Source: Candidatus Poribacteria bacterium
GTDB taxonomy: Bacteria > Poribacteria > WGA-4E > WGA-3G
DNA length: 64,000 nt
Direction: 5' to 3'
NCBI GenBank assembly: GCA_022819945.1
Contig: JAJEGI010000108.1
Span: 72,880 to 136,879, forward strand
Shown here: positions 28,902-49,667 of the stretch, one piece after another
How positions within the stretch are numbered: position 1 is the first letter of the stretch
How the letters are laid out: every line of letters begins with the position of its first letter
Notes under the pieces: model-generated
Told to the model about the DNA's origin: nothing
Seen by the model: only the letters and a program-made list of their open reading frames with translations
The model's database searches: none
Made by a program: the position numbers and the translations under genes

Positions 28902-31900
28902 ATGCAATCCGTAAAGGACATTATCCAACAGTGCCATGACCAGCGACGAAGAGATCTGCAGCAGCGCGAGACGATTGTCTCACCCACATTGCACGGTGAG
29001 TACCCTTACCATTATATTGTTTATTGTGCGCGTCAGCACCCGTTGCTTTTACATGACCTCGAACAGGCAAATATTTCGTTTATGCCGATTGGACAGGCAC
29101 CCTTCGATCGGGGGCCAGCGTATTGTGGCGGCACGCGGCTCTTAAGACGACAAGGCACACTCAACTGGGAACCGAGACGATGGTTCTCGTCGTGGGGGAT
29201 TCAGGTCTATACAGGAACGCCATCCGCGCGTGACGGGGCGAACTGGCACGACATTGAGTTCACCTATCAGGCGATCCGAGACGCACCCGATGCCGTCGTT
29301 ACATGTGTAGACGCGCTCGTCAACGCTGTTATGAACCCACTCCTCACCTTACGCAAAGATGGAGGCTTGCGCTTTTCGTGTCGAGTCCCGGACTATCTTC
29401 ACTCAAACACAACGGATGCAAGGCAGTACGTTTATAAGTACCTACCCGATATAGACCACCGCGATCGTGAGATCTACGTTGAGATTGTTGGTGGTAAAGG
29501 CTACACGCGCTGGGACGCTCGCTACGAGATTCTTACAGGCAGTCTTTTAGCCCCGCCTATCATTTCTAAAGACGTGCTTTTCGCGTTTCTCGATGTTTTG
29601 CGAGAACTCCAGCATGAACCCGCTCCGGCATCGGAATTAGACCTAATAGATGAAGAACTTGTGGATACACAGGATTTCGACGATTTCGATGTCATAGAAT
29701 CGTTAGAAACAGAACAAGTTGTGAATGAAAGTCTCCTTGCAGTACGACGCGGGGAACTTTCTCCGATTGGAATCAAACGACCCAGACCGCTCCTTGAAAA
29801 AGTGAAACACACTGCTGTGGAAGATCAGAGGAACCTCTCTGAACGCGAAGCCCGTATTCTTGGGATTATCACGGGTTTAATGAGCACTGAAAAGAAACGT
29901 GAAATCGAAGCCACGTTTCTCAATACCGAACCTATATGGATCAACGCGAATACCGCACACGATGCTGAAAACGTAGAACAGTATTATGAAGAACTGGGTG
30001 TTTCAGTAGGACGTTGGAAACCGAGAAACTATCGCTGGGAACAGGCGGAGTGGATACCTATTGCTGAACGGATGAAGAATCCTTTCGCGCGGGGAAACGT
30101 CTGCGAAGATGCCAAGAGATGTGATGCCTTAGCGCAGAAAGGCGGTGATCCGAATAAAAGTATCTGCCCAAGTTGTCCGGTTTATAATGCGTGTCAGGCG
30201 CGCGGGTATCTTTCTCAATTTGAGACACTCAAGGAAAAGCAGGTCATTGTGTCCGATATTCCAAACCTCTTTCTCGATCAGCGGTACGCGGCACTGGTTG
30301 AGCGGTTGATTATGCCCGGTCGAATCTGTATTATAAACGATTCCGAATCCCAACTCACGAAACTCTTTTCAGAGCATCATCTGTCAACCGAAATTCTTGA
30401 AGGCTGGCTCATTAATTGGAGCAGTGCAGCCTTGGGTCAATTCGCGAAAACACTGCTGAACGCTATTCGGATCACAGACAGTCAACATGGCGATATTGCC
30501 AAGCGGGTTCGCACTGTTGTTCAGGCGTTTGAAAAGTTAGCAGATAGCATTGTTCAGCAGATGTCTCAGGTAAATTGTACAGATAAAGAGGGACACCAGA
30601 TTGCAATAGATACTGATAGTGCAATCCTGCTTGGGGCCTTGGACATATCGACCTCAGAAAACATAGAGAAACTTCCAAATGTGTATCGCGACTCGGAATG
30701 GACGTTATGGCATCAGCTGAAGACATTTTTTGCCTATTACACCCGCGATATGGATGCACCGATGTTTGTCGATGACGGGATTTTGCGGTTCTGGTTACCG
30801 CCAAGAATTCATCAAGAGATTCAGCACCTTGTATTCATATCACCAGCGTTCTCGGAAGATAGTTTTAAAAAAGTGTTTCCTGAAGAAACTGTTTCGGTGA
30901 GATGGGTTGAATCGCAGGAAACATCACTTTCAGGGAATAAGGTTTTTCAACTACGGAGCGCACCACATATCTCCTATGCAATCGCAAACTACGAGGTTAA
31001 GTGGGATGTGTTTAGCCTTTCTGAAATTGCAAGTCGCTTTTTTCGCGGTATCTATCAAGAAATGAAACAACACCCAGATCGCAATCATGTCGTTATCTCA
31101 AGCACAACCACGAGATTGATGTTGAAAAATGTTTTCGATAGGATTATCAGCTACCACGATCTTATCAAAGACGCACCAGCACATCCTGAGGACTTGCGAT
31201 CTACTTTTGAAGCCGCCGATCTTTACTACGACCGCATCAATGTTCTACAATCCATTTTTAAGGCTGCTGATGTTGTCTGGATCGTTGGTACGCCTTATTG
31301 GCCCCCAAAATTCATCTGGGAACAAGCGAAAATCCTGTTTGGAAATCAAGTGGAACCGCTAAATTATAACTTGACAATGAATCCCTATCAATTTGAAGAT
31401 GAACGGATACAGGCACTTTACGAACAGAATGCTATCGGGGCACTGACACAGATCGTCCGTATCGCTGGATTCAATGAATCATCAGGCAAAGTACTGGTTC
31501 TTAACACGGCTTTGCGGGTCCCCTCAGTCACCGATGCACCAGAGATAGAATTGTTTGATTGGGAAGACTTTGAGCTCGCTGGCGGATTGGATGAACTTTC
31601 AGAGACAATTCGGATACGTGAGGAATACGAGACAGAACAAGCGAACATGGACGCCTCGTGGAGCCGAAAACGCGTTGAATATTTGCTCGGTGTTTCTAAA
31701 GCACAAGCGAACCGTATCTTGATGAGGTTGAGGGGCGGTAAACTTGAGCGGATCCCATTTCATGTGCAGATTTTAGAGATGCTCTCGGATGGACAGAAAA
31801 CAACATCTGAAATTGTTGAAGCAATTGAGGGGAATCCGGGTGCCATTAAAAACGAACTCACCTATCTTGTAGAATCGGGTGAGATTGTGAGGATCCGGCG

Positions 31901-31922
31901 CGGGGTCTATGCACTCGCATAG
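28902..31922 (+). CDS. Large orphan protein: AEP primase-polymerase-like N-domain, C-x2-C-x5-C cluster, C-terminal winged helix
   Basis: Uninterrupted 1006-aa ORF. WGIQVYTG...WHDIEF / RKDGGLRFSCRVP / VEIVGGKGYTRWDARYEIL resemble AEP motifs I-III. CEDAKRC-x15-CPSCPVYNAC. The C-terminal ILEMLSDGQKTTSEIVEAIEGNPGAIKNELTYLVESGEIVRIRRGVYAL is wHTH-like. No Walker A motif was seen. Confidence 0.7.
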   Translation: MQSVKDIIQQCHDQRRRDLQQRETIVSPTLHGEYPYHYIVYCARQHPLLLHDLEQANISFMPIGQAPFDRGPAYCGGTRLLRRQGTLNWEPRRWFSSWGIQVYTGTPSARDGANWHDIEFTYQAIRDAPDAVVTCVDALVNAVMNPLLTLRKDGGLRFSCRVPDYLHSNTTDARQYVYKYLPDIDHRDREIYVEIVGGKGYTRWDARYEILTGSLLAPPIISKDVLFAFLDVLRELQHEPAPASELDLIDEELVDTQDFDDFDVIESLETEQVVNESLLAVRRGELSPIGIKRPRPLLEKVKHTAVEDQRNLSEREARILGIITGLMSTEKKREIEATFLNTEPIWINANTAHDAENVEQYYEELGVSVGRWKPRNYRWEQAEWIPIAERMKNPFARGNVCEDAKRCDALAQKGGDPNKSICPSCPVYNACQARGYLSQFETLKEKQVIVSDIPNLFLDQRYAALVERLIMPGRICIINDSESQLTKLFSEHHLSTEILEGWLINWSSAALGQFAKTLLNAIRITDSQHGDIAKRVRTVVQAFEKLADSIVQQMSQVNCTDKEGHQIAIDTDSAILLGALDISTSENIEKLPNVYRDSEWTLWHQLKTFFAYYTRDMDAPMFVDDGILRFWLPPRIHQEIQHLVFISPAFSEDSFKKVFPEETVSVRWVESQETSLSGNKVFQLRSAPHISYAIANYEVKWDVFSLSEIASRFFRGIYQEMKQHPDRNHVVISSTTTRLMLKNVFDRIISYHDLIKDAPAHPEDLRSTFEAADLYYDRINVLQSIFKAADVVWIVGTPYWPPKFIWEQAKILFGNQVEPLNYNLTMNPYQFEDERIQALYEQNAIGALTQIVRIAGFNESSGKVLVLNTALRVPSVTDAPEIELFDWEDFELAGGLDELSETIRIREEYETEQANMDASWSRKRVEYLLGVSKAQANRILMRLRGGKLERIPFHVQILEMLSDGQKTTSEIVEAIEGNPGAIKNELTYLVESGEIVRIRRGVYALA

Positions 31923-32412: not shown

Positions 32413-32441
32413 TTGACAAGCACTCTCAGCAATGTTATAAT
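32413..32441 (+). promoter_or_regulatory. Perfect extended sigma70 promoter TTGACA-17 nt-(TGT)TATAAT
   Basis: Read directly from the sequence. It faces the KTSC remnant and the DUF433/DUF5615 pair. Confidence 0.6.
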
Positions 32442-32665: not shown

Positions 32666-32878
32666 ATGGATAGAATAACTTTTAATTCAGAGCAGTGCGG
32701 TGGACGTCCGTGCATTCGAGGGATGCGGATTCGGGTAACAGATGTCTTAGATTTGCTGGCAGCTGGGCTCTCTTTTCAAGAAATTCTTGACGAAATGCCA
32801 CTGTTGGAATACGAAGACATTGTCGCTTGTCTCCAATTTGCCTCACAAAAAATTAACCATCCTGTAATTGCCGCATGA
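32666..32878 (+). CDS. DUF433 antitoxin-like protein
   Basis: CGGRPCIRGMRIRVTDVLDLLAAGLSFQEILDEMPLLEYEDIVACLQFA is the DUF433 signature. Its stop overlaps the next start (ATGA). Confidence 0.85.
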   Translation: MDRITFNSEQCGGRPCIRGMRIRVTDVLDLLAAGLSFQEILDEMPLLEYEDIVACLQFASQKINHPVIAA

Positions 32879-33216
32879 AGTTTTGGATTGATGTGCAACT
32901 TTCTCCGGCACTTGCCCCTTGGCTCAATGCAACTTTCGGAGTACAAGCTTTTTCACTTGAGTGGCTTGGCCTCCAACAGGCTAGCGATAAAAGAATCTTC
33001 TCCGCCGCTCGCGAGGCAAATGCAGTTGTCATAACTAAAGATCAAGACTTTGTTCACCTGTTAAATCAGCTAGGTCCCCCACCACAAGTCGTCTGGATAA
33101 CTTGTGGCAATACATCAAATGCGGAAATGCGTAAGATCCTCCAACAAAATTTCCCAGAAGTCTTTCTACTCTTACAATCCGGTCAACTACCCAAGTCTAA
33201 AGACTTGGGCTTGTGA
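32875..33216 (+). CDS. DUF5615 (PIN-like) toxin-like protein
   Basis: MKFWIDVQLSP...ASDKRIFSAAREANAVVITKDQDF...VVWITCGNTS is typical of DUF5615 partners of DUF433. The last 8 codons fall inside the hairpin at 33190-33212. Confidence 0.8.
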   Translation: MKFWIDVQLSPALAPWLNATFGVQAFSLEWLGLQQASDKRIFSAAREANAVVITKDQDFVHLLNQLGPPPQVVWITCGNTSNAEMRKILQQNFPEVFLLLQSGQLPKSKDLGL

Positions 33217-33383
33217 ACATCCGTAGCCACACGGGGACCCACAAGTTAAACAGTTTTCTACAGTCATATATCGCGGTATCTGTGTGTGGCAACACGAACA
33301 ATGTTTCGGATGCTCCCCAAGTCTGATTCACTTTGGATACTGTGATCTGGATGGGGCAATATATACCCGAAAGGGGTTTACGC
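33213..33383 (+). ncRNA. Candidate omega-RNA scaffold region upstream of isrB
   Basis: Positional inference only: IscB/IsrB guide RNAs are encoded immediately 5' of the ORF. Local stems are visible (CTTGTG...CACAAG at 33210-33245). No covariance model was run. Confidence 0.3.
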
Positions 33384-34415
33384 ATGTTAGTGGTAGTCGT
33401 AGACGAGAATCAACACCCTCTAATGCCTACAAAGCCTTCAAGGGCAAGGCGTTGGATACAATCCGGTAAAGCCACGCCTTTTTGGAAGAATGGTATCTTC
33501 TGCGTCCGCCTAAACGTTGACCCTTCAGATACCGAACTCCAAGAGATCGTCGTCGGTGTAGACCCCGGCAGTAAGAAAGAGGGCTTTACTGTGAAGTCGG
33601 CATCTCACACCTATCTCAACGTTCAGGCAGATGCCCACAACAAAGTCGGTAAGAAGGTTGAAAAGAGACGAGACCTTCGCAGAGGCAGACGTTCACGGAA
33701 GTGTCCGAATCGAAAGAACAGGACGAACCGTCTTGCGAATAAAGACCGTATCCCCGCAGGCACGCGCGCAAGGTGGGATTGGAAACTCCGTATTCTTGAT
33801 TGGTTGTCGAAACTCTATCCGATCACACACGTCTGTGTTGAAGATATTAAGGCACGGACGATAGAACGTGCGAAGCAGTGGAATCAGTCGTTTAGTCCAC
33901 TTGAAGTCGGTAAGCAATGGTTCTATGGTGAAATACAGAAGCGTTGGCACTTGCTAACCCTTCAAGGGTGGGAAACCCAAGAGATACGCGATAGATTAGG
34001 TCTCAAGAAGTCGTCAAAGAAACTATCAGAGACTTTTGACGCACATTGCGTAGATTCTTGGTGTTTAGCGTATCATAGTGTTGGCGGTGATAGCACACCT
34101 GAGAACACGGCTATATTCTGTATAGCCCCGATACGGATAAAACGCAGAGAACTGCACAGACAGCAAGAATCAAAAGGTCGGAAGCGTTCACGACAAGGCG
34201 GAACGGTATTAGGCAAAGGGTTGGTCAAAAACACATTGGTCCGACACATTAAATACGGACTTACCCGACTTGCTGGTGTTAATGCAAAAGGTTTGTTTTC
34301 CATATACAACTTAGAAGGCAACAAACGCTTAACAACAGGCGCAAAGCAGTCTGATTTCAGAGTGCTAACACGCCTTAACTTTAACTACAGGAGCGGGCAT
34401 TCCTCCCAAACTTAA
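33384..34415 (+). CDS. isrB: IsrB-like RuvC nuclease (IscB family lacking HNH)
   Basis: PLMP motif (ENQHPLMPTKPSRARRW), RuvC-I VGVDPGSKKEGF, Arg-rich bridge helix KRRDLRRGRRSRKCPNRKNR, RuvC-II HVCVEDIK and RuvC-III FDAHCVDSWCLA. Only about 65 aa with no HNH signature lie between RuvC-II and RuvC-III. Start at MLVVVVDE, preceded by GAAAGGGG. Confidence 0.8.
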   Translation: MLVVVVDENQHPLMPTKPSRARRWIQSGKATPFWKNGIFCVRLNVDPSDTELQEIVVGVDPGSKKEGFTVKSASHTYLNVQADAHNKVGKKVEKRRDLRRGRRSRKCPNRKNRTNRLANKDRIPAGTRARWDWKLRILDWLSKLYPITHVCVEDIKARTIERAKQWNQSFSPLEVGKQWFYGEIQKRWHLLTLQGWETQEIRDRLGLKKSSKKLSETFDAHCVDSWCLAYHSVGGDSTPENTAIFCIAPIRIKRRELHRQQESKGRKRSRQGGTVLGKGLVKNTLVRHIKYGLTRLAGVNAKGLFSIYNLEGNKRLTTGAKQSDFRVLTRLNFNYRSGHSSQT

Positions 34416-34478
34416 AAGTTTGGGCTTCCTGCCCGAAGATTAGGTGAATCTTTGATAGAAATTACTGCTACCTCGTAA

Positions 34479-34742
34479 ATCAAAGGACTAACCGGGCGAC
34501 AAGTTTGGTACCGTTTCAGTGATCGACAGATTCGCAATGAAAGACATTACTACACAACCCTGAACTATATCCATTACAATCCGACAAAACATAATTACGT
34601 GCAAAAACCAAAAGATTGGACCTGTTCAAGTCTACATTGGTATGAAAAGCACTTCGGGATTGAATGGCTGCGAGACCTTTGGCGAACACATCCTGTACGG
34701 GATTATGGAAAGGGATGGGATTGGCAAGGTTCAGGTTCGTAG
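34479..34742 (+). pseudogene. C-terminal remnant of an IS200/RAYT-type Y1 (HUH) transposase
   Basis: The open frame lacks a start codon: GRQVWYRFSDRQIRNERHYYTTLNYIHYNPTKHNYVQKPKDWTCSSLHWY. It contains the Y..YIH.NP tyrosine region, but the HUH half is absent. Confidence 0.65.
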
Positions 34743-34818: not shown

Positions 34819-34898
34819 GGCTCGTAGTAGCGCAATTCATTGCGCTTCTTTGATTACGCCTCAAGAGCACCGGTTCGTAGTAGCGCAATTCATTGCGC
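34819..34898. repeat. Two REP-like copies GGYTCGTAGTAGCGCAATTCATTGCGC (34819-34845, 34872-34898)
   Basis: Direct repeats, each containing the palindrome GCGCAAT-TC-ATTGCGC. A partial third copy (GGTTCGTAGTAAGGCG) lies at 34734-34749, overlapping the transposase remnant stop. Confidence 0.75.
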
Positions 34899-47256: not shown

Positions 47257-48999
47257 ATGAGTAATCAAAACTCAAGTAGAACAAGCACTCATAACACATT
47301 TACCGCATCCAATATAAGAAGATGCGAAAAATATGTTCTTGATATGCAGAAAAGACTTGACAAAGCGGTTGCCAATAATGACGTGAAAGCAATTCATAAT
47401 CTTTTTACTATCTTGGTTAAAAGGTCTTGGGCAGTGAAAGTTTTGGCAGTATGGAGAATAACATATCTCAACAACGGTAAATACACTGCTGGAATTGATG
47501 ATAAGAAAATTCCACATGCTACAAAACAACAACAGGACGAAATGAGATGGCGACTTCTACAAGAAATCAACATCAAATCAAATCCTGATGCTATCAGGCG
47601 TGTTTATATTCCGAAATCTAACGGCAAGAAACGACCGCTTGGCATACCCACCTTAAAAGACCGAATAAATCAAGAAATCCTTAGAATAGCACTTGATCCA
47701 ATAGTAGAATATCATTTTGACGATGACAGTTACGGTTTTAGACCAAAACGAAGTTGCCAAGATGCTATGAAAATGTTATTTATCTGCCTTTCAAGACAAG
47801 ACCGCAGACGCTACATAGTAGAAGGTGATATTAAAAGTTGTTTTGACAATATATCTCACAATCACATACTATGGACTTTACGGACTTGGAAAGTGCCGAT
47901 ATATGCCATACGCACTATTAAAAAGATGCTAAAAGCAAAGATATTTGATAAAGAAAAACTACACGAAAGCACACAAGGAACACCTCAAGGTGGAGTAATT
48001 TCACCGATGTTGTCTAATGTGGCGTTATCATCTTTTGACTACTACATCAGAAATCACACCGACCAAATAATGGTAAGATATGCTGATGATTTTGTGATTT
48101 TGTGTAAATCCAAATCACAGGCTAAGGAAGTTAAAAAGGACATATCTAAATATCTTAATAACACGATTGGCTTAACGCTATCAGAGGAAAAGACTCATAT
48201 CACTCATATCAAGAAAGGTTTTAATTTTCTAGGATTTACATTTAGAAAATATCCACAAACAGGGATACACAAACCTAAAGATATAAGTGATTATACCATG
48301 TTAGTTACACCTGATAAGGAAAGAACGAAAGACCGCATTTTGAAATTAAAAGATGTAATAAGCAAAGGCAAAGCCCTACCCCAAAACACGCTTATCACAC
48401 TTTTAAATCCGATACTTCGTGGCTGGAGTAATTACTATAGATACGTCAATAGTTCTAAAACATTTAGCAACATTGATTATTATTTATGGCGGAAACTTCT
48501 TAAATGGGGAAAACGGAGGCACAACAGAAAAGGCGGAAAGTGGGTTGTAGATAATTATTACACCAAAGACAACAAAGGGCTTATCTTTGGCAAAAGACCC
48601 AATCCTTTACTTATCAGGCTTACCGATACAACTTTATTAAGTTTTATCAAAGTAAGAAAAGGAAAAAGAGTCTATAGTAAAAGTGATTCTGATTATTGGA
48701 CAAAACGGGAATATGCGTTGGTTAATCAGAATTTATCAGAAATGAATAAACGACTACTTAAAAAGCAAAAGGGCAAATGCCCACATTGCAATAACCCTTT
48801 TGCTTTAGATGATAAATTACATACTCATCATATATTTCCAAAAGCACTCGGAGGCAACGATAGTTATAGCAACCTTCAACTACTGCATGCCGAATGCCAT
48901 CGTGAGTTACATTCCAAAAGGGGATATGGTGTTAGTTCGGCAACACACCCGACTGCCAATCGGGACTCGCAGGTTCGAGACCTGTTATCTCCAATTTGA
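47257..48999 (+). CDS. Group II intron reverse transcriptase/maturase with HNH endonuclease domain
   Basis: RT motifs (RRVYIPKSNGKKRPLGIPT, YGFRP, VRYADDFVI), X domain (LNPILRGWSNYYRY) and HNH (CPHCNN...HHIFPKALGG...LLHAECHRELH). The last 26 codons read through the tRNA-like sequence, so the native C-terminus is uncertain. Confidence 0.9.
   Translation: MSNQNSSRTSTHNTFTASNIRRCEKYVLDMQKRLDKAVANNDVKAIHNLFTILVKRSWAVKVLAVWRITYLNNGKYTAGIDDKKIPHATKQQQDEMRWRLLQEINIKSNPDAIRRVYIPKSNGKKRPLGIPTLKDRINQEILRIALDPIVEYHFDDDSYGFRPKRSCQDAMKMLFICLSRQDRRRYIVEGDIKSCFDNISHNHILWTLRTWKVPIYAIRTIKKMLKAKIFDKEKLHESTQGTPQGGVISPMLSNVALSSFDYYIRNHTDQIMVRYADDFVILCKSKSQAKEVKKDISKYLNNTIGLTLSEEKTHITHIKKGFNFLGFTFRKYPQTGIHKPKDISDYTMLVTPDKERTKDRILKLKDVISKGKALPQNTLITLLNPILRGWSNYYRYVNSSKTFSNIDYYLWRKLLKWGKRRHNRKGGKWVVDNYYTKDNKGLIFGKRPNPLLIRLTDTTLLSFIKVRKGKRVYSKSDSDYWTKREYALVNQNLSEMNKRLLKKQKGKCPHCNNPFALDDKLHTHHIFPKALGGNDSYSNLQLLHAECHRELHSKRGYGVSSATHPTANRDSQVRDLLSPI
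48920..48993 (+). tRNA. tRNA-like gene, anticodon GCC (Gly), embedded in the intron and overlapping the IEP 3' end
   Basis: Hand-folded cloverleaf. Acceptor GGGGATA/TATCTCC (G3:U70 wobble). D stem GTGT/ACAC with GG in the loop. Anticodon stem CCCGA/TCGGG with loop CTGCCAA. 4-nt variable loop. T stem GCAGG/CCTGT with loop TTCGAGA. Discriminator A. Position 14 is U rather than A, and CCA is not encoded. Confidence 0.6.
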
Positions 49000-49549: not shown

Positions 49550-49592
49550 ACACAAAATCAAATGTAATAAAAGTCGTTATTGTTGACATGGA

Positions 49593-49667
49593 AAGCCGTG
49601 TGCGGTGAAAGTCGCACGCACGGTTTGGGGAGAGGGGCTAGAAGGCGACTTTTAGTCCCTACTCTAC
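49593..49667 (+). ncRNA. Group II intron domains V and VI
   Basis: Domain V is AAGCCGTGTGCGGT-GAAA-GTCGCACGCACGGTTT: an 8-bp lower stem with the AGC triad, a 2-nt CG bulge, a 6-bp upper stem and a GAAA loop. Domain VI is an 11-bp helix (49630-49640 paired with 49653-49664) with a single bulged A at 49661, 6 nt before the 3' end. Confidence 0.85.

Follow-up and report, generated by a model that had tools for sequence, protein, structure and literature searches.

An intact isrB gene and its omega-RNA scaffold within a probable non-autonomous IS200/IS605-family element of Candidatus Poribacteria

IsrB is a small, known relative of the ancestor of Cas9, and a sibling of IscB that lacks the HNH domain. 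The IsrB protein of Desulfovirgula thermocuniculi (DtIsrB; PDB 8dmb), an OMEGA nickase, is a 353-aa protein in which a PLMP domain, RuvC-I, a bridge helix, RuvC-II, a short linker without HNH domain, RuvC-III and a domain interacting with the target-adjacent motif (TAM) follow one another. Its omega RNA, encoded just before the open reading frame (ORF), contains two pseudoknots and consists of a 20-nt guide followed by a scaffold, 262 nt long; the published TAM is 5'-NTGA-3' (PMC9581776), and is read by residues R323 and Q326 (Hirano et al. 2022, PMC9581776). In the IscB-type elements of the IS200/IS605 family (ISC; Kapitonov 2016; Altae-Tran 2021; Meers et al. 2023), the transposon's right end (RE) delimits the omega RNA, with the guide lying outside, the TAM is the transposase target motif located beside the left end (LE), the upstream gene is co-oriented, tnpA is rarely linked, and the ends are common to elements with different cargo. 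Among the papers listed by a literature search, none links Poribacteria with IscB or IsrB. Here I describe a locus that shares most of these features, in a 64,000-nt stretch of contig JAJEGI010000108.1 from a Candidatus Poribacteria bacterium (hereafter the window). I consider, with a probability of about 0.9, that positions 33182..34443 are a non-autonomous OMEGA-type insertion sequence of the IS200/IS605 family, carrying an intact isrB gene preceded by an omega-RNA scaffold. It adds a new and well-preserved member to a known family and is not a new kind of system, and its differences from DtIsrB are of degree.

The isrB gene, and the motifs identified in its product, are the following.

33384..34415, + strand: isrB ORF, ATG start, product of 343 aa
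Residues 10-24: PLMP motif, QHPLMPTKPSRARRW, with PLMP itself at residues 12-15
Residues 56-67: RuvC-I, VGVDPGSKKEGF, containing VDPGS with D60
Residues ∼94-106: Arg-rich bridge helix, KRRDLRRGRRSRK
Residues 150-156: RuvC-II, VCVEDIK, with E153
Between RuvC-II and RuvC-III: Cys-free linker of 67 aa, without HNH motif
Residues 218-229: RuvC-III, FDAHCVDSWCLA, containing AHCVD with H221 and D224
C-terminus: TAM-interacting domain of ∼114 aa

A preliminary description of this DNA, made by reading the letters alone, had placed the ORF at these coordinates, listed the same series from PLMP to C-terminal domain, and proposed an IsrB-type protein with intact RuvC acidic and histidine positions. All of the motifs were found, in the order it gave. 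The coordinates also hold, as the ATG is supported by the N-termini of the family and by the RNA scaffold found directly before it, and no comparable frame exists on the reverse strand opposite the ORF. A TTG start at 33333, which opens a longer ORF in the mechanical list, was rejected, because the family N-termini align at the ATG and because 33333..33383 falls within the conserved scaffold. A large protein database contains 3302 homologues, of which the top 120 are 76-95% identical to the window protein, span 330-369 aa (mostly 340-344), originate from Candidatus Poribacteria, and are named only "hypothetical" or "RRXRR domain-containing". On sequence grounds, the motif order and this homologue support are far beyond chance.

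Profile hidden Markov model searches and superposition on a published structure, both suggested in the preliminary description, agree on the family. Pfam RRXRR (PF14239) matches residues 3-156 with an E-value of 5e-34, and no match to an HNH domain was obtained from Pfam at E ≤ 1 anywhere in the 343-aa protein. Its best relatives, at 330-350 aa, are of comparable length. The best relative of solved structure by sequence is DtIsrB, with an E-value of 8.6e-32 in a single-sequence search, 4e-41 with a 36-member profile of close relatives, and 2.6e-80 with a 50-member profile of diverse ones, in which the alignment reaches profile position 331 of 340. In both sequence and profile searches, the PLMP region aligns with the PLMP domain of DtIsrB. 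The catalytic residues D60, E153, H221 and D224 line up with VDPG, TED and H..D of DtIsrB; none of them varies among the 36 close relatives, and in the set of 50 diverse ones each is conserved to at least 90%. R315, also invariant in the family, aligns with the TAM-reading R323.

For structural comparison I used an AlphaFold model based on a diverse alignment (pLDDT, the predicted local distance difference test, of 86.3; predicted template modelling (TM) score of 0.84), which superseded an earlier, poor run on close relatives only (76-95% identity; pLDDT 54). The PLMP region is modelled as a beta-sheet and a helix, with pLDDT above 90. A Foldseek search of the PDB ranks 8dmb first (E-value 1.5e-24, TM 0.78/0.82, root-mean-square deviation 3.7, 28% identity), and even the pLDDT-54 model had 8dmb as its best fold match. 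By every sequence and structure criterion applied, the product of 33384..34415 is therefore an IsrB, in accordance with the identity first proposed. At 343 aa it is close in size to DtIsrB, and it retains the domain order, the catalytic D/E/H/D set and the TAM-reading Arg. The linker lacks the HNH domain, and a nick, rather than a double-strand break, is therefore the expected product.

The 202 nt upstream of the ATG, previously noted as an upstream leader, proved to be a structured omega-RNA scaffold, with the following elements.

33182..33383, + strand: omega-RNA scaffold, HEARO-like, 202 nt; the transposon end called RE by Meers et al.
33185-88 / 33252-55: S1, short stem closing the 5' domain
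33190-97 / 33202-09: SL1
33210-15 / 33240-45: helix, containing the hairpin 33220-24 / 33231-35
33270-80 / 33336-46: long 11-bp helix of the 3' domain, containing the hairpins 33282-85 / 33292-95 and 33306-11 / 33321-26
33226-29 / 33287-90: kissing-loop pseudoknot
33315-19 / 33352-56: second pseudoknot
33366-68 / 33373-75: final hairpin, with the ribosome-binding site

The RNA thus possesses two domains, eight helices and two pseudoknots. In the 5' domain a short stem surrounds two hairpin arms, and in the 3' domain the 11-bp helix encloses two hairpins. The kissing loop joins the loop of the second 5' hairpin to that of the first 3' hairpin, its diagnostic pair being AU in 32 copies and GC in 28, while in the second pseudoknot a downstream UGGGG pairs with the CCCCA loop of the second 3' hairpin (at one pair, 40 copies have AU and 23 have UA). 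These helices were found by a column-pair covariation scan in an alignment of 69 distinct copies, from which the full structure was built (RNAalifold alone gave just 24 pairs). When the resulting 56-pair, hand-drawn structure was tested, 87.9% of cells were paired, versus 35–45% with the partners slid; changes on both sides are seen at 31 pairs, and 0 of 500 shuffles matched the observed values. For the helix 33220-24 / 33231-35, as drawn from the window, the fraction of paired cells is only 37%, owing to a shift of one alignment column in most other sequences, where a counterpart hairpin (AGCGU/ACGUU) is seen by eye; the value for the last hairpin, 55%, is lowered by alignment gaps. At a relaxed threshold, the Rfam HEARO model (RF02033) aligns over its full length, positions 1-211, on 33182..33418, running from the first base of the element to the ORF start, with the 5' consensus GUCAAC..CCC..UAAAG..GGG. 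The 202 nt before isrB thus form a conserved RNA structure with covarying pairs, and its first base coincides with the element boundary.

The scaffold topology appears to match the group A IsrB omega RNAs of Hirano et al. (PMC9581776), with the first inner hairpin kissing a 5'-domain hairpin and the second pairing with a downstream single strand, whereas the DtIsrB RNA, with its longer scaffold, belongs to group B. In one sister copy (L008:2769-3037), the omega RNA contains an extra insert of ∼25 nt (alignment columns 96-120), with a possible hairpin of its own, GCGAATGC...GCATTCGC. This may be an optional stem-loop, akin to the SL3 by which published subgroups of IsrB omega RNAs differ.

The preliminary description had also suggested that this copy has definable ends. 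These are provided by the bounds of similarity between copies, and by an uninterrupted site described below.

33182..34443, + strand: whole mobile element, 1262 bp, with a 2-nt end ambiguity
34394..34435, + strand: imperfect palindrome, subterminal, at the end distal to isrB (the LE of IS200/IS605 nomenclature), with CGGGCA/TGCCCG as outer and CCCAAACTT/AAGTTTGGG as inner stem, read from the sequence

The 2-nt ambiguity arises because the element and the target site both start with GT. In blastn comparisons between the window and sister loci, similarity begins at 33182 and stops at 34447/8, and the flanks are unrelated. The left end is sharp, as all copies start with GTCAAYWACCC or GTAAAGATCACCC after unrelated sequence, and at the right end all finish with a conserved imperfect palindrome followed by ...RTGA. 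The isrB stop codon falls in the loop of this palindrome, and both of its stems vary in a compensatory manner among copies (for example GGTGT/ACACC and GGATT/AATCC). The inner stem CCCAAACTT..AAGTTTGGG lies 19 nt inside the isrB-distal end, and the subterminal palindrome of the other end, CCCAAGTCT..AGACTTGGG, lies 8 nt inside; both covary between copies.

The element is multicopy in Poribacteria. A total of 292 sites encoding isrB were identified in species-representative genomes, and the best 80 of these are nearly all titled Poribacteria, one being the metagenome-assembled genome of an "uncultured bacterium". At least 8 copies reside on a single chromosome (OZ253447.1), and copies that are 96-98% identical occupy different sites of one chromosome. 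Within the window, nhmmer found no second element and no standalone omega RNA.

The insertion site in the window is defined by three features.

32875..33216, + strand: host DUF5615/PIN-like gene of a DUF433-DUF5615 pair (Pfam DUF5615, E-value 3e-25)
33162..33181, + strand: putative guide source flank, CTTTCTACTCTTACAATCCG, outside the element and within the host DUF5615 gene
34444..34447, + strand: target-adjacent motif GTGA (TCAC on the opposite strand), part of the target site and not of the element

Uninterrupted DUF5615 genes finish with ...LLLQSGESLIEITATS. In the window this gene is broken 10 codons from its end, and its last 11 codons and stop are now element-derived, such that the last 10 residues of the protein have changed from ESLIEITATS to QLPKSKDLGL; the original tail, GT GAA ... 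TCG TAA, is now found at 34444..34478. The neighbouring DUF433 protein (32666..32878) is present on the 19 contigs read, and among these loci one (L082) matches the window at 100% identity over the compared flanks and the whole element, while four others (L084-L087) have no element and read ...CTCTTACAATCCG GTGA ATCTTTGATAGAAATTACTGCTACCTCGTAA. The uninterrupted joint is ...CAATCCG|GTGAATC..., as compared to ...CAATCCG | GTCAAC...GATTAG | GTGAATCTTTG... for the occupied site, and in L086 the two flanks adjoin each other exactly (3516/3517). The insertion is therefore precise and without target duplication, the GT ambiguity alone remaining, and it lies directly 5' of GTGA near the 3' end of the DUF5615 gene. 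This GTGA belongs to the target, since it is present in L084-L087 right after the guide-matching sequence. With precise insertion, no target duplication, no terminal inverted repeats, subterminal palindromes at both ends and a one-sided RTGA motif, the locus resembles other IS200/IS605 sequences.

Across 80 copies, the motif adjoining the isrB-distal end is ATGA in 65, GTGA in 13 and TTGA in 1, and is absent in 1 (RTGA in 78/80, NTGA in 79/80). No motif was seen among the copies at the opposite, RNA-side flank, and the sequences upstream of 33182 are unrelated. The natural RTGA motif is consistent with the NTGA TAM. With the element in place, the guide match instead adjoins the initial GTCA of the element, which departs from the TAM at one position, in parallel to the TAM/TEM relation described by Meers et al.

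Several side observations concern this neighbourhood. The DUF433-DUF5615 pair (32666-33216; L081-L088) is found in differing surroundings, next to Vgb_lyase, trypsin-like, TIR-domain or Y1-like genes, which points to a region that varies or to a toxin-antitoxin cassette that is mobile. A 1006-aa protein, encoded at 28902-31922 in the window, is kept upstream of the pair on the related contigs L081, L082, L085 and L087; its sole domain match is a short AbiEi_4/HTH at the extreme C-terminus. A perfect sigma-70 consensus (TTGACA, 17 nt, TGnTATAAT) is located at 32413-32441, upstream of the DUF433-DUF5615 operon, and this predicted promoter is the most likely source of read-through into the omega RNA. 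A second promoter-like site at 33151..33178 was discounted, as a promoter scan did not place it above chance.

A possible life cycle can be drawn from what is described for DtIsrB and for the G. stearothermophilus IscB and TnpB. Read-through from the co-oriented host operon would yield an RNA with a 5' guide of ∼20 nt (33162-33181, the length of 20 nt being an assumption taken from DtIsrB) followed by the scaffold, and IsrB would bind this guide-scaffold RNA. A Y1 transposase (TnpA) acting in trans would excise the element as single-stranded DNA, leaving a rejoined donor site in which the guide match is followed by GTGA. IsrB would then recognise this donor joint and nick the non-target strand, and the element would be restored by recombination with a sister copy still carrying it. 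The occupied site would be spared because the guide match there precedes GTCA, the element start, and not NTGA. In 52 of 63 loci, the nearest ORF upstream has the same orientation; Meers et al. reported the same bias for iscB, and explained it by the need for outside transcription to obtain the guide. I infer that the copy in the window may nick DNA, as its characterised homologue does, and may still be mobile.

Several observations weigh against the interpretation of 33182..34443 as an OMEGA-type IS200/IS605 element with intact isrB. First, no tnpA was found in the element, in the window, or in the ORFs flanking ∼70 loci; it is because of its absence from element and window that I call the element non-autonomous, and the Poribacteria isrB pattern agrees with the ∼1.5% tnpA linkage published for iscB (Meers et al.). 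Second, the exact protein was found at a single site, leaving presence/absence polymorphism as the only signal of recent movement. Third, the NCBIfam IscB equivalog model (NF040563) matches residues 3-156 with model positions 1-157 of 314 only, and at 93.2 bits does not reach its cut-off of 175. Fourth, Q326, the residue by which DtIsrB reads the fourth TAM base, aligns here with Thr318. Finally, the HEARO score of 23.2 bits is far under the gathering threshold, 83 bits. Values of 28 and 38 bits were obtained for two sister copies, in which the match stops 7 and 4 nt short of the ATG (4 nt in L058). With scores of 23–38 bits against a gathering score of 83, this Poribacteria IsrB omega-RNA lineage is one that the curated HEARO model misses.

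The first two of these observations would also fit an immobile relic, that is, an element of IsrB descent that no longer moves or cuts and persists neutrally, and damage to some sister copies, such as L003, where the omega RNA is split by a tnpB element, points the same way. I nevertheless regard this as improbable. The ORF is intact with all catalytic residues, and is likewise intact, at 340-344 aa, in 19 of 19 copies checked. The ratio of nonsynonymous to synonymous substitution rates (dN/dS) of the window copy is 0.18-0.20 against near-identical paralogues located elsewhere, and 0.06-0.15 against distant copies with estimable dS, showing that isrB is under purifying selection. All helices and both pseudoknots are kept in the RNA, the insertion is polymorphic among related populations, and 96-98% identical copies are found at separate sites of one chromosome.

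It could also be envisaged that the element has been co-opted by its host, for instance as an RNA-guided regulator, or to modify the DUF433-DUF5615 toxin-antitoxin pair whose 3' end it has replaced, instead of homing selfishly. The element is oriented for co-transcription with this pair, has rewritten the last 10 residues of DUF5615, and lies downstream of the consensus promoter at 32413..32441. However, the same element is found in dozens of unrelated contexts, insertion next to RTGA accounts for its position without any link to the host gene, and the site is unoccupied in related populations, all of which make co-option very improbable. Last, a superficial motif match by a member of another RuvC/RNase H family (an IscB with degenerate HNH, a TnpB/Cas12 or a RuvC resolvase) was tested and is rejected: despite the 93-bit IscB equivalog match over residues 3-156 and weak fold matches to RuvC resolvases, IscB structures align by sequence over the N-terminal ∼115-160 residues only, about a third of the protein, and come next in the Foldseek ranking with TM ∼0.69/0.60-0.61 versus 0.78/0.82 for IsrB, the resolvases and Cas12f are far lower (E > 1e-4, TM < 0.3), and the lack of an HNH domain, together with the score under the NCBIfam cut-off, means that the protein is not an IscB sensu stricto.

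Returning to the non-autonomous element, I searched for the origin of its transposase. Clustering of the ORFs at the ∼70 loci gave ordinary Poribacteria paralogue families only, and no recurrent flanking transposase. The sole Y1-like sequence nearby, at 34482..34739, is truncated, and corresponds to the C-terminal 86 residues (95% identical) of a 202-aa Y1_Tnp-like, RAYT-like protein that is intact in L083. It was rejected as a part of the element, since it also adjoins the uninterrupted site. This remnant is followed by two REP-like hairpins, GTAGTAGCGCAATTCATTGCGC, at 34826-34846 and 34880-34898, that score as terminator-like.

Two other loci contain IS200/IS605-type genes alongside an IsrB element. 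In L028:2600-5800 (CATOTL010000001.1), a canonical tnpA of 137 aa, with a 413-aa tnpB behind it, has an IsrB element lodged between its ribosome-binding site and its ATG(A) start. The tnpA match has an E-value of 2e-17, obtained with an approximate IS200 TnpA query whose identity value is not used here, and HUH and Y motifs are visible in the ORF. The end hairpins of this tnpA-tnpB element, CCCCCTTGCTTTAGCTGGGGG and CACCCTTGCTTTAGCTGGGTG, have a C-rich stem with a TTTAG loop, as in the IsrB elements, and it is a candidate transposase source. In L003:1456-2960 (OZ253447.1), a ∼1.47-kb insertion carrying a 429-aa tnpB (OrfB_IS605 and Cas12f1-like TNB) interrupts the omega RNA of an IsrB copy with 96% identity. 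This tnpB element landed directly 5' of the conserved scaffold GTGA (window equivalent 33342-33345), and its adjacent end resembles the isrB-distal end of IsrB elements. RTGA targets frequently coincide with start codons. The L003 and L028 observations are consistent with a common end type and target motif, and a transposase supplied in trans therefore fits; cross-mobilisation is putative. More tentatively, and at somewhat less than even odds, the Poribacteria IsrB family could be currently active and amplified in bursts, as a passenger of an IS605 tnpA-tnpB master, through shared end hairpins, and of tnpB elements, through shared TCAY/RTGA motifs, its protein being a mesophilic nickase with a compact RNA (∼200 nt) that reads the fourth TAM base by Thr and not Gln.

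Elsewhere in the window, an ORF at 47257..48999 encodes a group II intron reverse transcriptase/maturase/HNH protein. A tRNA-Gly(GCC) call at 48920..48993 overlaps the last 80 nt of this ORF, and the Intron_gpII match (RF00029) is found at 49591..49667, ∼600 nt beyond it, which is an unusual spacing.

The locus provides a cleanly bounded, apparently functional IsrB-omega-RNA unit, from a phylum where such genes are annotated "hypothetical" or "RRXRR domain-containing", and natural uninterrupted sites expose its putative guide and TAM without experiment. Few IsrBs have been characterised, and the structural reference is from a thermophile; an orthologue from a marine sponge symbiont, presumably mesophilic, with high copy number and a shorter scaffold, could serve as a compact nickase. 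The lineage displays a heavy expansion of IS200/IS605-type elements in sponge symbionts, in which IsrB and TnpB elements have one end type and one target motif. If the IsrB family is indeed an active passenger, IsrB, TnpB and TnpA would form a natural network in an uncultivated sponge symbiont, and a practical non-thermophilic alternative to DtIsrB would become available.

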